From: Eubacteriales bacterium
Lineage (GTDB): Bacteria > Bacillota > Clostridia > Oscillospirales > CAG-272
Reading direction: 5' to 3'
NCBI GenBank assembly: GCA_045656765.1
Contig: JAZORU010000030.1
Coordinates: forward strand, 1,728-65,727
Length of the DNA stretch: 64,000 nt
Part shown: positions 4,982 through 9,049 of the stretch, piece by piece
Layout of the letters: the number at the start of each line of letters is the position of its first letter
How positions within the stretch are numbered: position 1 is the stretch's first letter
Made by a program: the position numbers and the translations under genes
The notes under the pieces: generated by a model
Told to the model about the DNA's origin: nothing
The model's input: the letters and a program-made list of their open reading frames with translations, nothing else
Database searches by the model: none

Positions 4982-6112
4982 TTACTCCTTCGGTATTGTT
5001 ATGGTGATAACAGTACTCCCCTCGTCATCCTCTCTTTTCTGTGCGCCGATGCTGTATCCTGCCGCGCGCATAACGTCAAGTGCCCTCTCTATCGTATTAT
5101 AAAAGATGCGGATATCGCGTATAAGACAGCAGGACGACTTTGACGTAGATTTTTTCAGTTTCTTTTTGAGGCAGGAAAGCACAAGCGCGTCGGTTGAGCA
5201 GTCGTCAAGGCGCTCCCTTATCGTGCGGTCGAGCATTTTTGCACGAACCGTTCTGTCCTCTATGTTCAAGAGACTGCTTGCTTGGCGCTCGCTCAGAGCC
5301 GCTTCTCTTATCCTGCGGCGCTCTGCCTCGCTCCATTCAAGCAGGTGAAGCTTCTCTGCAACGAACGCTTCTGCAACGCAAAGGCGCGCGGCAACCGAGC
5401 AAACGTCAAGGTTGTATTTCGCTGCGAGCTTTCCCATGCTTTCCGCTATGTCGAGATAGTTCATCTCCACGGTCTGCAGGTTTTCGCACAGCATCATCGC
5501 ATCGCTTTTCTGTCGGTCGGTGGATATCACGATGCAGTTTACGTTTTTGTATCCGAGAAGCCGCACGGCGCGAAGTCTGCGCTCTCCGCATATAAGCTCG
5601 TACGTACCGTCGGGCATATCCCGCACGGTCAGGGGGTGTATAACTCCGTATTTGTTTATGCTCTGCGCCAGTGCCGTAATGCTCTCGGGCGAATAATACT
5701 TGCGGTTAGGATAGCCGTAGCTTTTTATTTTCGCCACGGGAACGCTGTAGACAGCAATACCCGACGGACATAGACTCCGCGGCATTTCCTTTATTTTTGT
5801 GGCGGCATGGGACAATCCTCTCACCTCGCCCACGGCACGCTTTTGACTTCCCGAGGTAATATTCATGTATTCTCGCTCCTTTTTCGGTGTTTTAGACTTT
5901 ATCGGATATATTTTATCACCGTTTTTGCGCGAAAAAGCGCGAAGCGTGTTTCCCTTGCAGAAATTTTTGAGAAAATTGCGTATTTTTTTGTGCGTGCGCA
6001 GCTCTTCGTTTTTAGTCAAGCCTTCTTGTGTATTCTGCGGCGCACCCTCTGATTGCTCGGTTTCGTTTGTTTCTTCCTCTTTTAAAAAATCGCTTTCGTA
6101 GGTTTTCGACAT
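4982..6112 (-). CDS. ParB/Spo0J family protein, Noc-like, with long N-terminal extension
   Basis: LAQSINKYGVIHPLTVR, YELICGERRLRA, ENLQ motifs, HTH region, C-terminal IRDIRIFYNTIERALDVMRAAG (Noc-like); own promoter and AAGGA RBS. Confidence 0.8.
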   Translation of the reverse strand: MSKTYESDFLKEEETNETEQSEGAPQNTQEGLTKNEELRTHKKIRNFLKNFCKGNTLRAFSRKNGDKIYPIKSKTPKKEREYMNITSGSQKRAVGEVRGLSHAATKIKEMPRSLCPSGIAVYSVPVAKIKSYGYPNRKYYSPESITALAQSINKYGVIHPLTVRDMPDGTYELICGERRLRAVRLLGYKNVNCIVISTDRQKSDAMMLCENLQTVEMNYLDIAESMGKLAAKYNLDVCSVAARLCVAEAFVAEKLHLLEWSEAERRRIREAALSERQASSLLNIEDRTVRAKMLDRTIRERLDDCSTDALVLSCLKKKLKKSTSKSSCCLIRDIRIFYNTIERALDVMRAAGYSIGAQKREDDEGSTVITITIPKE

Positions 6113-6270: not shown

Positions 6271-6546
6271 ATGAGCAAAAACGTAGATTTTAAAAACCGA
6301 GACAGATTTATTCAGTTAGGAATTGCGATTGCCGCTTTGCGTAAAATGCGCGGTATGTCACAGGAAAAGCTTGCAGAAAAAGCTAACGTCAGCCGTTCAC
6401 ATATAAGTGCTATTGAAGCACCCGGATTGGTTCGTCCTTTTTCATTAGACGTGTTTTTTAATATTGCGGATGCTTTGGAGATAGACCCTGCCGATTTAAT
6501 TGATGCGGCAGTATTCCCCGACAAAATACTTAAAAGAAACAAATAA
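6271..6546 (+). CDS. XRE-family helix-turn-helix regulator
   Basis: LRKMRGMSQEKLAEKANVSRSHISAIE HTH_3 pattern, 91 aa. Confidence 0.9.
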   Translation: MSKNVDFKNRDRFIQLGIAIAALRKMRGMSQEKLAEKANVSRSHISAIEAPGLVRPFSLDVFFNIADALEIDPADLIDAAVFPDKILKRNK

Positions 6547-6693: not shown

Positions 6694-6770
6694 GGAGGCA
6701 TAGCTCAGTTGGTTAGAGTACTTGCTTGACATGCAAGGGGTCGCAGATTCGAGTTCTGCTGTCTCCACCA
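6694..6770 (+). tRNA. tRNA-Val (GAC)
   Basis: GGAGGCA/TGTCTCC acceptor stem, TAGCTCAGTTGGTTAGAG D-arm, CTTGC-ttGACat-GCAAG anticodon arm, TTCGAGT T-loop, encoded CCA. Confidence 0.97.
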
Positions 6771-6895
6771 AAAAATTCCGCACGAAAGTGCGGGATTTTT
6801 ACTTATTACCTTTTACGTCTTCACTCTTACCTTGCCAAAAATTACGCAGGATTTTTTGAAAAGTAATAAGTAAAAGGTAATAGGTAAGAAGTGAG
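6771..6895. repeat. Terminator hairpin plus inverted heptamer-repeat element after tRNA-Val
   Basis: AAAAATTCCGCAC-gaaa-GTGCGGGATTTTT, then TTACTTATTACCTTTTAC facing AGTAATA-AGTAAAA-GGTAATA-GGTAAGA; related copy at 25818-25891. Confidence 0.65.
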
Positions 6896-7041
6896 GTAGC
6901 TTTTCGCCTTAGCGAAAAGCTTTTTTATTTTCCGTCAACCACCCAAACACAGCCGATTTTTGTTACGGCTGTGATTTTTTTTCATTTTAGGGTAAAATAG
7001 AAGCAGACGGAGACAGCTCCGCAAATCAACGGGAGGTTAAA

Positions 7042-7887
7042 ATGAAAAATCAAACGGTTACAAACGAGAGCATTGCGAGATTCGGAGAATTTTTGAAAAA
7101 AGAAGAAAAGGCAGAGGCAACCTGTGAGAAGTATATCCGCGATATATGCCGCTTTTCTCGGTTTTTGGCAGGGAAGCTTTTGAAAAAAGAGCTTGCAGTC
7201 GAGTACAAGGGTGAGCTTTTGTCGGGAGGATATTCCCCGCGAAGCGTAAACTCAATAATAGCCTCGCTCAACGCATACTTTGAATTTGCAGGTGCGCGCG
7301 AGTGCAAGCTAAAGACGCTAAAGCTTCAGCGGCAGATATACTGCCCCGAGGAAAAGGAGCTCACAAAGGCGGAGTACACGCGCCTCGTGCAAGCCGCCGC
7401 GAGAGCGGGCAACGAAAGGCTGAATTTGATAATTCAGACGATATGCGGCACGGGCATTCGTGTAAGCGAGCTGAAATTTATTACCGCGGAGGCGGTACGG
7501 GCAGGGGAAGCGATTGTCAGCTGCAAAGGCAAAACACGCTCTGTGTTTATAGTTCGGGCATTGCAGAAAAAACTGCTCTCATTTATTAAAAGAGAGGGTA
7601 TCCGCGAGGGATGCGTTTTCGTAACTCGCTCAAAAAAGCCTGTTTGCAGAACTAACGTATGGAAGGATATGAAGGCTCTTTGCAAGCAAGCCAACGTATC
7701 TCCGAGCAAAGTATTTCCGCATAACCTGCGCCACCTTTTTGCCCGCACCTTTTACGGAATCGAAAAGGACATAGCGAAGCTTGCCGACGTGCTCGGACAT
7801 TCAAGCATCGACACCACGAGAATATATATAATGACAAGCGGACAGGAGCACCGTCGCCGTATGGAAGGTATGCGCCTTATTATTTAA
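7042..7887 (+). CDS. Tyrosine recombinase (probable DNA invertase)
   Basis: N-terminal SAM-like domain; catalytic R in TGIRVSEL, HNLRH, LGHSSIDTTRIY; GGGAGG RBS; inverted repeat sites directly downstream. Confidence 0.95.
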   Translation: MKNQTVTNESIARFGEFLKKEEKAEATCEKYIRDICRFSRFLAGKLLKKELAVEYKGELLSGGYSPRSVNSIIASLNAYFEFAGARECKLKTLKLQRQIYCPEEKELTKAEYTRLVQAAARAGNERLNLIIQTICGTGIRVSELKFITAEAVRAGEAIVSCKGKTRSVFIVRALQKKLLSFIKREGIREGCVFVTRSKKPVCRTNVWKDMKALCKQANVSPSKVFPHNLRHLFARTFYGIEKDIAKLADVLGHSSIDTTRIYIMTSGQEHRRRMEGMRLII

Positions 7888-7908
7888 AAACATAATTCAG
7901 AAAAGAAA

Positions 7909-7931
7909 AAACGCCCAAAAAACAGGCGTTT
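7909..7931 (-). terminator. Hairpin with T-tract on minus strand, shielding the recombinase from the leftward promoter
   Basis: AAACGCC (7909-7915) / GGCGTTT (7925-7931); A-run at 7901-7910 gives a U-tract on the minus strand. Confidence 0.55.
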
Positions 7932-8000
7932 GAAACGTAATCCGTATTATGTAGTACATATGCTCTTGAAAAAATCGTTCGATATGACCGATTTCGGTTT

Positions 8001-8029
8001 ATTATACCTTGCTTTTTTTCGTATTTCAA
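8001..8029 (-). promoter_or_regulatory. Sigma-A promoter inside the invertible segment, currently pointing left (OFF for downstream genes)
   Basis: Minus strand TTGAAA (8029-8024), 17 nt, TATAAT (8006-8001). Confidence 0.8.
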
Positions 8030-8215
8030 TAGTTTTTTAAAAGTTTTCACTTTAAGTTGCTAAAGTCAAAAAATAGTGCACAAAATGCGCATAGAAACAA
8101 AGCCTTTTTTTGTAGCTTTTTAAAAAAAGGCTTTGTCTCTATGCTTTTTTGGTGGCTTTTGTGATTTAGGAATTTATCTTGCATTGTCTTTGCTACATAA
8201 TACGGATTACGTTGC

Positions 8216-8239
8216 GGCTGCCGGAGATGGCGGCTTTTT
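8216..8239 (+). terminator. Putative weak intrinsic terminator between sites R1 and R2
   Basis: GGCTGCC-ggagat-GGCGGCT stem (two G-U pairs) running into TTTTT. Confidence 0.6.
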
Positions 8240-8312
8240 AATATTACATAATACGGATTACGTAGTACGTCCCGCATTATCCGTTTTTGCAAAGCTAAAG
8301 AAAGGAACAAAA

Positions 8313-8477
8313 TTGATCAACTTTATATGGATTTTAACTGTAATTTGTGTTTTGACAATTGTTGCAAAGGTATGTTACGACGTATGCCTTTTTCTGAAAG
8401 CCTCTTCGAAATTTGCGAATAAAAGCGCTGAGAATGAAAACGACAGTTGTTTAGACTGCGAAATCGAAAAAGGGTAA
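8313..8477 (+). CDS. Small single-TM hypothetical protein (54 aa)
   Basis: TTG start 8313 after AAAGGA RBS; MINFIWILTVICVLTIVAKVCYDVCLFLK hydrophobic N-terminus; 3' part of listed ORF 8133-8477. Confidence 0.55.
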   Translation: MINFIWILTVICVLTIVAKVCYDVCLFLKASSKFANKSAENENDSCLDCEIEKG

Positions 8478-8483
8478 GACGTT

Positions 8484-8759
8484 ATGTCGGAGCTTAAAAT
8501 ATTAACGTCAGACGGCTTTTTCCTGCTGATAATTGTTTTGTTTTTTGCGGTGATCTTTTTCGTTGGTTTAGTAAACTACGTAGCGCAGTATATTGAAGCC
8601 TTAAATGACCTGAGAAGATCTTTATACAACTCGGAGAGCGAAGAGGAGTACAGATACTGGAAGCGGGAGCTTAGGATATACCGTCTGTGCATTATTCCGT
8701 TTATGACGCCTCAAAGAATAAAAAAGCTTCTCAAAATCTTCGGGATAAAGGCCGAATAA
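8484..8759 (+). CDS. Small membrane hypothetical protein (91 aa)
   Basis: ATG 6 nt after previous stop; N-terminal TM helix GFFLLIIVLFFAVIFFVGLV, then charged helix and EEEYRYWKRELR. Confidence 0.7.
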   Translation: MSELKILTSDGFFLLIIVLFFAVIFFVGLVNYVAQYIEALNDLRRSLYNSESEEEYRYWKRELRIYRLCIIPFMTPQRIKKLLKIFGIKAE

Positions 8760-8787
8760 AAAGTCAACAGTCTATTTTTTCATACAA

Positions 8788-8946
8788 AATCCTGCTGTCT
8801 GATGAAGTCGGGCATAACAGAGCCGTCGTCCCTTAAATGATCCTTCACACACTAATCATCCTTCACACAAACTCTCTAAAAGCGAAGGCTCTCCGACCGT
8901 GACGGGCAACAGAATTGCAAAAAAGCACCTTTTGGGGTGCTTTTTT
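8788..8946 (+). ncRNA. Candidate structured non-coding RNA (long irregular stem, ~50-nt G-poor loop with duplicated ATCCTTCACACA) ending in a terminator
   Basis: CTGCTGTCTG/CGGGCAACAG, GTCGG/CCGAC, AGAGCC/GGCTCT, TCG/CGA nested pairings; 12-nt repeat at 8840 and 8858; AAAAAAGCACCT-tttg-GGGTGCTTTTTT terminator. Confidence 0.55.
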
Positions 8947-9049
8947 GTTTGCACAATTACAAATAACAGCTTTCTCTTGTCTACCGCTTGAAATCGGGAG
9001 GCTTTTGATATATAATATATTAAGAAACGTCATGTGAAAGGCGCAAGGT

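Follow-up and report, generated by a model that had tools for sequence, protein, structure and literature searches.

The window analysed here is the whole 64,000-nucleotide stretch of contig JAZORU010000030.1 from a Eubacteriales bacterium (GCA_045656765.1, an incomplete metagenome-type assembly that is 69% complete). One locus in it holds a gene for a Xer-like tyrosine recombinase, three copies of a recombination site, and two small open reading frames (ORFs), referred to as the cargo. The sites are L on the left, R1 as the inner right site and R2 as the outer right site. Segment P, with a predicted promoter, lies between L and R1, and cassette B, with a hairpin, lies between R1 and R2 (Table 1). 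This locus is very probably a four-state DNA switch. The conclusion is well supported because rearranged junctions were found for the locus itself, a homologous locus was assembled in all four arrangements, and the design recurs across lineages.

Table 1. Features of the switch locus, in positions of the window. X1 to X7 are public sequencing runs.
Feature	Position	Strand	Description
Xer-like tyrosine recombinase	7042..7887	+	281 amino acids, intact ORF; PF00589 and PF02899; presumed switch invertase
Fixed left terminator A (predicted)	7909..7931	-	would end leftward OFF-state transcripts that would otherwise enter the recombinase gene in antisense
Site L core	7935..7952	+	spacer TCCGTA; within 21-bp inverted repeat 7934-7954; arm profile from 338 family half-sites
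Invertible promoter segment P	7953..8194		242 bp; inverted in X1 record 5; both orientations among homologues
Sigma-70-type promoter (predicted)	8029-8001	-	TTGAAA-17-TATAAT; 11/12 consensus match; -10 box ends 48 nt from L
Long imperfect inverted repeat behind promoter	8079..8154		-34.7 kcal/mol, z -5.9
Site R1 core, inner right	8195..8212	-	inverted relative to L
Cassette B	8213..8245	+	33 bp; 8-pair hairpin 8216-8235, GAGA loop, T run to 8239; predicted intrinsic terminator
Site R2 core, outer right	8246..8263	-	direct repeat of R1; joints seen here in public contigs
Cargo ORF 1	8313..8477	+	54 amino acids; TTG start behind AAAGGA (8301-8306); hydrophobic N-terminus, peak hydropathy 2.3
Cargo ORF 2	8484..8759	+	91 amino acids; one predicted membrane helix; peak hydropathy 3.35
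Hairpin with A and T runs	8918..8947		likely end of the cargo transcript

Tyrosine recombinases invert the DNA between inverted pairs of sites, and an asymmetric spacer within the site sets the direction. An earlier note on this stretch had described a three-site geometry, which was confirmed. L and R1 (7934-7954 and 8193-8213) are inverted repeats identical at 21 of 21 positions. R1 and R2 (8194-8212 and 8245-8263) are identical at 19 of 19 positions with an offset of 51 bp, and they are direct repeats of each other, a relation the note had overlooked. The 18-bp core is laid out as a 6-bp arm, an asymmetric 6-bp spacer and a second 6-bp arm, and it may resemble chromosomal dif sites. With up to 3 mismatches allowed, the core has three copies in the 1.23-Mb genome, all at the switch. 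A degenerate site pattern matched four times across the window (three of them exact) against 0.67 expected, and none of 100 shuffles reached four. A lone half-site was also seen at 7891-7897, just behind the recombinase stop, where the related strain in X4 has a 13-nt gap.

The recombinase is a single-copy gene in this genome. Both the SAM-like N-domain (PF02899) and the integrase catalytic domain (PF00589) scored above their cut-offs. The catalytic residues R140, H227, R230, H253 and Y262 are present, and their motifs were found in 133-138 of 138 homologues. The nearest solved structures are XerA and XerD. The enzyme fell below the cut-offs of the NCBIfam resolvase models for XerA (125 vs 220), XerD (106 vs 330) and XerC (100 vs 335), and below that of the integron integrase model TIGR02249 (IntI, 41.9 vs 265 bits). 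The earlier note had pointed to FimB and FimE, but this Xer-like enzyme is not a close relative of them, as it scored 20.3 bits against a cut-off of 221 with the FimB/FimE-type invertase model PRK09870.

Related loci were taken as the best 80 from GTDB genomes, with 58-68% identity and nearly all titled as gut Clostridia. A hairpin and a site of the same type lie directly behind the recombinase stop in 77 of the 81 loci, the window included. From this adjacency, we infer that the recombinase catalyses the inversion. A tRNA-integrating element was also considered, with a tRNA-Val gene 270 bp upstream, and was rejected because a tRNA lies within 700 nt in just 3 of 72 homologous loci.

The earlier note had proposed that the assembled state is OFF. 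This agrees with the predicted promoter, which would point left into terminator A. Overall, the scan yielded 5 promoters where 4.1 were expected by chance and 7 terminators where 2.9 were expected, so its totals exceed chance only modestly. The hairpin of cassette B folds at -12.6 kcal/mol (z -2.4), and 6 of 200 shuffles were equally good. In a hairpin-plus-T-run test, the cassette passed on the plus strand and failed on the reverse strand, and only 1 of 300 shuffled cassettes passed. Long arms such as those of the imperfect inverted repeat behind the promoter were present in 13 of 79 family invertible segments, compared to 2 of 79 shuffles.

The possible isomers were built in silico, and the junctions in seven public runs (X1-X7), all examined as contigs, were assigned to them. 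Form 1 is the assembled arrangement, form 2 results from recombination of L with R1, form 3 from recombination of L with R2, and form 4 is the fourth isomer. Public contigs matched rearranged junctions. X4, which comes from a different study, contains the R1-cassette-R2 unit in a 73-nt unitig with 0 differences at a depth of 14.7. It also holds a unitig that runs from B through R2 into the cargo (depth 4.1; forms 1 or 2, or a duplication) and a loose end that joins B to the left flank, which occurs in forms 3 and 4 only. Since X4 holds both kinds of junction, cassette-right and cassette-left forms were present within one sample. In X7, B is joined to the forward end of the promoter segment (forms 2 or 4). 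In X1, it is the cargo that adjoins this forward end, as would be the case in form 3 or in an ON form that lacks the cassette. Record 5 of X1 has an opposite-strand joint with 59 letters on the short side, showing that segment P is inverted. In X2, the back end of the segment is joined to the cargo (form 4 or a cassette-less OFF form). Nothing on the switch itself was found in X3, X5 and X6.

All four arrangements predicted by the earlier note were found in a homologous gut capsule locus whose sites have the spacer TTTGCA. Of its 12 assemblies, four were in form 1 (L149, L160, L166, L169), three in form 2 (L171, L188, L204), two in form 3 (L136, L224) and two in form 4 (L128, and L117, which is partial and ends within the promoter segment). 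L204 was re-oriented by hand through its flanks and is form 2, not form 4. The remaining assembly, L153, was left out as chimeric, with cargo on both sides. The promoter segments of this locus (211 bp) are copies or reverse complements of each other with 0-1 differences. The 37-bp cassette is identical in all 12 assemblies, while the flanks are 95-100% alike. Where the recombinase tail is followed by a site and then the reversed cassette, recombination of L with R2 is required. Thus, the use of R2, as proposed in the note, is indicated both by these forms and by junctions at the window's own locus that need the outer site. Forms in short-read assemblies may be stitched, yet each junction must exist in reads. 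In a second lineage, we found form 1 (L235), form 2 (L115, L185, L228) and a cassette-left form (L186).

Most members of the recombinase family have a simpler switch. Of the 63 GTDB loci that extend 450 nt or more downstream, exactly two inverted sites were found in 58, in most cases separated by about 260 bp; four loci have one site and only one has three. Relatives from the window's own order (n = 24, with L082 a repeat of L065) comprise 15 with two sites, six with more and three with one. Two-site loci numbered 73, and in 52 of these the distance between the end of the best promoter and the site ahead of it is 30-60 nt. The promoter points toward the recombinase in 38 and toward the cargo in 14, so that two-site members were assembled mostly OFF. 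Left flanks scored as minus-strand terminators in 66 of 93 cases. From these site counts, promoter placements and left flanks, the norm in the family is a promoter inverton with two states, in which the OFF-state terminator stays in place. The site-terminator-site design was present in 1 of 87 unselected loci (L087 alone), and a scan of viral contigs gave four stretches, none adjoining this recombinase. Five other switches (L088, L092, L103, L174, L199) have extra sites at a period of 31-33 bp (13-15 nt spacers, about three helical turns), with up to five sites and no terminators. These extra sites may serve for accessory binding, or they may have arisen by direct-repeat recombination.

The earlier note had asked whether the site-terminator-site arrangement is conserved at homologous recombinase loci, and it does recur in other lineages. 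A direct search for two sites 25-55 nt apart, with any spacer, returned at least 113 metagenome stretches (41 of 64 parts covered), 13 of 401 genomes from the order and 10 of 401 from the class. Three of the ten class-wide matches were already known, and the new loci L242-L247 stand outside the terminator analysis. A short cassette lies between same-sense sites in 55 of the 150 loci that have a recombinase end plus a site. When the recombinases were clustered at 90% identity, 62 clusters had two sites and 26 had more; of the latter, 18 lack a terminator and eight have one. The eight collapse to four at 80% identity. These labels were assigned by the author, and L186, L233 and L240 are borderline. 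On a quick recombinase tree, which left out the partial-recombinase loci L117, L200, L202, L223 and L224, the terminator label needs four changes, and the starred branches force four. A further terminator-cassette lineage, L135/L223, has a partial recombinase only. The terminator-cassette design is therefore rare but has recurred in at least four lineages.

Cassettes scored as terminators in the blocking direction in four lineages, whereas not one of the 55 cassette loci passed in the other direction. In the L087 clade, where recombinase identity is 79-90%, the stem is kept (63 of its 64 cells are paired), while the loop, the flanks and even the site spacer change. This conservation is better evidence of selection than the polarity is.

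Cargo genes differ among the lineages. In L149, the cargo is a pair of genes for Wzz and a ParA-like ATPase, which is presumably typical of capsule operons. In L228 and L235, it is a TetR regulator followed by a gene that we take to encode a signal peptidase-like protein. Three-site switches stand before Wzz and kinase-like capsule genes in two lineages, the L149 group and L236, and the L236 cassette is not clearly a terminator. Three more loci (L237, L238 and L239, from G090, G114 and G152) have three sites and a strong terminator cassette, with no recombinase match within the fetched flanks. The L237 switch is flanked by two surface-protein genes that are divergent and whose N-termini are identical. 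Such a switch could select the first gene, the second or none, or else the symmetry might reflect an assembly chimera.

In the mechanism we propose, the recombinase would flip either the promoter segment alone or the promoter together with the terminator cassette. In form 1, the promoter would point left into terminator A, and the cargo would be OFF. In form 2, it would point right into B about 80 nt after the start, so that transcription would be mostly silenced with some read-through. In form 3, the cassette would have moved left and been reversed, and the promoter would face the cargo without a terminator, which would be ON. In form 4, the promoter would point left through B and then A, and the cargo would be OFF again. 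The states would cycle 1-2-4-3-1, and at equal rates about a quarter of the cells would be ON instead of half. On balance, we favour the reading that the cassette mainly lowers the ON fraction. It would act chiefly to keep expressing cells a minority, with form 2 mostly silenced and its leak a side effect, and these output levels are predictions. The cassette itself likely originated as a copy of the family unit of gene tail, terminator and site. We favour this reading because LOW and HIGH would connect only via OFF states and because the family already leans OFF.

Several points weigh against this interpretation. Both junctions that move the cassette reach only 10-11 letters beyond the site, under our 31-letter bridging rule, although this is expected from short unitigs. 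The strain in X4 is a related one with flanks about 88-95% identical, and its loose end matches the window allele at all but 1 of 11 letters. The well-bridged joints in X1 and X2 fit a cassette-less strain equally well. Short-read assemblies can also stitch falsely across the promoter segment, as in L153 and in L231, where the cassette is on both sides. The tree is a quick one, and L128 has a long branch. Both double (compensatory) changes in the L087-clade stem come from one sequence (33/500 shuffles). At 90% identity, 18 of the 26 multi-site clusters have no terminator in the cassette. The blocking polarity counts for less than it seems to, since the reversed cassette is similar to the family left flank, and copying of that flank would give the polarity automatically. 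Lastly, the ON, LOW and OFF levels are themselves predicted.

Another possible explanation, which we find rather doubtful, is that the switch is graded. Form 2 would then be a selected LOW level set by a leaky terminator, and a population would contain OFF, LOW and HIGH cells. Much depends on the strength of cassette B, which was compared to other terminators with a Firmicutes-type terminator score (lambda of 0.144 from PMC1187862, three coefficients not taken from that paper, and folding at 37 C rather than 25 C). The cassette ranked at the 16th percentile of the 70 passing convergent-gene terminators in the genome and at the 34th percentile of the family left-flank terminators. Its stem has -10.4 kcal/mol compared to a median of -15.1 for the genome's terminators. 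Because of its two ranks, we read cassette B as a real though lower-tier terminator, predicted to be somewhat weak and not obviously leaky. Its T-run score was below that of terminator A in each lineage that holds both (4.84 vs 5.68 in the window, 4.31 vs 5.75 in L087 and 5.05 vs 5.36 in L149), which favours some leak. Cassettes of the TGGTTA/TGGGTA clade score -1.2 to +1.1, which is borderline compared to 4.1-5.4 for A, and the cargo there opens with the TetR regulator, where dose could matter. Intrinsic terminators are also seldom fully efficient. However, cassette B scored about like the ordinary OFF-state terminators of the family (2.57 vs a median of 2.95), and the score sorts terminators from non-terminators but is no gauge of read-through. 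In addition, the rheostat predicted by the earlier note would not work as a dial, since going from LOW to HIGH takes two inversions and passes through an OFF state.

It is also conceivable, though unlikely, that the third site and the terminator arose from a chance duplication or capture of a left flank. The four forms would then occur as a tolerated by-product, and the cassette would not be under selection. The reversed cassette matched the profile of 59 family left flanks at 7.8 bits, compared to 2.4 for the best of 300 shuffles. A recent tandem duplication of flank plus site is visible in L065/L082. The absence of a terminator from most multi-site clusters and the rarity of the form among unselected loci also fit a by-product. 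In contrast, recurrence in at least four lineages, the stem kept in the L087 clade, and the cassette of the 12 TTTGCA assemblies, which is identical in all of them while the cargo flanks diverge by as much as 5%, argue for selection. If the cassette were neutral, the direct repeats should also permit its loss.

Recombination between the direct repeats R1 and R2 would make the switch a copy-number dial, in which cassettes are deleted or stacked (0, 1 or 2 copies), likely between sister chromosomes. We consider it very improbable that this is the main event at the locus. In X7, record 13 is an 81-nt unitig that reads cassette-site-cassette, a junction the earlier note had overlooked, and it fits only a tandem cassette or a 51-bp circle. 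Direct-repeat recombination may therefore also occur, which suggests that the cassette copy number varies too. The X1 and X2 joints fit deletion forms, L231 has its cassette on both sides, and L092 and L174 have several short units. However, the X7 evidence is a single low-depth unitig (3.8) that extends 11 letters past the site. From Cre/lox, it is known that short spacing hinders intramolecular excision, and 51 bp is probably too short for it. A single cassette is present in each of the 11 usable TTTGCA assemblies, as counted with a search pattern that is blind to zero-copy forms.

Finally, the earlier note had allowed that the R1/R2 duplication might be an assembly artefact, in which case the real locus would be an ordinary two-site inverton; chimeric multi-site contigs do exist (L102, L153) and the source is an incomplete metagenome-type assembly, but this can practically be set aside because the cassette is unique in the genome and its site-flanked form occurs with 0 differences in unitigs from two other studies (X4 and X7).

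A broader generalization can be offered only tentatively. Gut Clostridia may have repeatedly evolved a one-enzyme, three-site machine in which a promoter and a leaky terminator are shuffled independently to give heritable OFF, LOW and HIGH states of capsule, fibre and membrane genes. Copy number would be a further tier, and a divergent-gene variant is possible.

The cargo ORFs of the window matched no Pfam or NCBIfam family. Two near homologues of the cargo proteins were found, the window's own included, and the Atlas leads were weak (0.81). Cargo ORF 2 has a distant relative at L103:801-992 behind another three-site switch (38% over 65 amino acids, E 8e-5), hinting at a small switch-associated protein family. 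Upstream of the switch, the tRNA-Val gene (GAC anticodon, 6694-6770) was the only feature above the gathering score in an Rfam search. On its upstream side lie a ParB-family gene and a small XRE-type helix-turn-helix regulator (4982-6112 and 6271-6546). A palindromic repeated element lies behind the tRNA gene at 6775-6930, and parts of it recur on several further contigs of this genome.

Promoter inversion is regarded as a two-way choice, and programs that detect invertons assign a single pair of repeats to the forward or the reverse state. With a third site and a terminator, a "forward" promoter can still be blocked, as in form 2, and counts of junctions become a mixture of four states. Such a design provides an easy means to set the fraction of expressing cells, or their level, without extra proteins. 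In one gut lineage (L149), a three-site switch stands before a capsule operon, which it is predicted to control.

Judged by the features that define the fim, cwpV, shufflon and integron families, the locus belongs to none of them. It combines promoter inversion like that of fimS with terminator gating like that of cwpV in a shufflon-like nested layout, and the closest system is an engineered double-inversion switch. As in promoter invertons, inverted repeats flank a promoter-like element, and the segment was seen in both orientations. As in shufflons and nested inversions, one recombinase has more than two sites and alternative partners are used. The movable pieces are non-coding, unlike the coding segments of a shufflon, and the promoter lies inside L-R1, not outside the segment as in cwpV. 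The R64 shufflon, p15B Min and the Campylobacter fetus nested inversion reportedly have more than two sites per recombinase and choose among coding cassettes or genes, whereas here a non-coding terminator is shuffled before one operon. Our literature search, with most subscription papers outside its coverage, found no natural three-site promoter/terminator switch. This is a real, recurrent variant of promoter inversion that has apparently gone undescribed so far.

The two-site relatives probably belong to the same family as hCom2 inverton group 139, with tyrosine invertase group 35, judged from a comparison made without the repeat motif. According to the main text of PMC11892184, that group has inner lengths of about 206-228 bp in two examples and flips in reads. 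It shares with our loci the Clostridia, an adjacent tyrosine recombinase and an inner segment of about 200-250 bp. That main text describes two-repeat invertons, does not use the word "nested" and mentions "terminator" once, as future work. The E. coli fimS switch with FimB/FimE and the Salmonella T1-antigen switch, as the relevant sections of PMC11294581 describe them, have a 270-310 bp promoter segment between two 9-bp repeats. In these switches, too, the promoter segment is bounded by inverted repeats and adjoins a tyrosine recombinase, and the outcome is ON/OFF phase variation of surface genes. They are described there with two states and no movable terminator, whereas the present switch has three sites and a Xer-like enzyme. 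In Clostridioides difficile cwpV, DNA inversion decides whether an intrinsic terminator blocks a surface gene, as set out in part of PMC2784873. There, two sites are used, the promoter is fixed outside, and the terminator is formed at a junction in only one of the orientations, whereas here the promoter and terminator are separate movable pieces. The R64 shufflon, p15B Min and the C. fetus nested inversion are named as natural multi-site inversions in the paper on a synthetic double-inversion switch (Ham et al. 2008; PMC2481393). That engineered switch rearranges promoter and terminator segments by inversion and gives output only when a promoter points away from the terminator, and it uses two recombinases (FimB and Hin) and four sites. 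The locus described here is natural and has one enzyme and three sites. It would be a compact natural counterpart, a 320-bp cassette plus one gene, of recombinase logic that was built synthetically with two enzymes.

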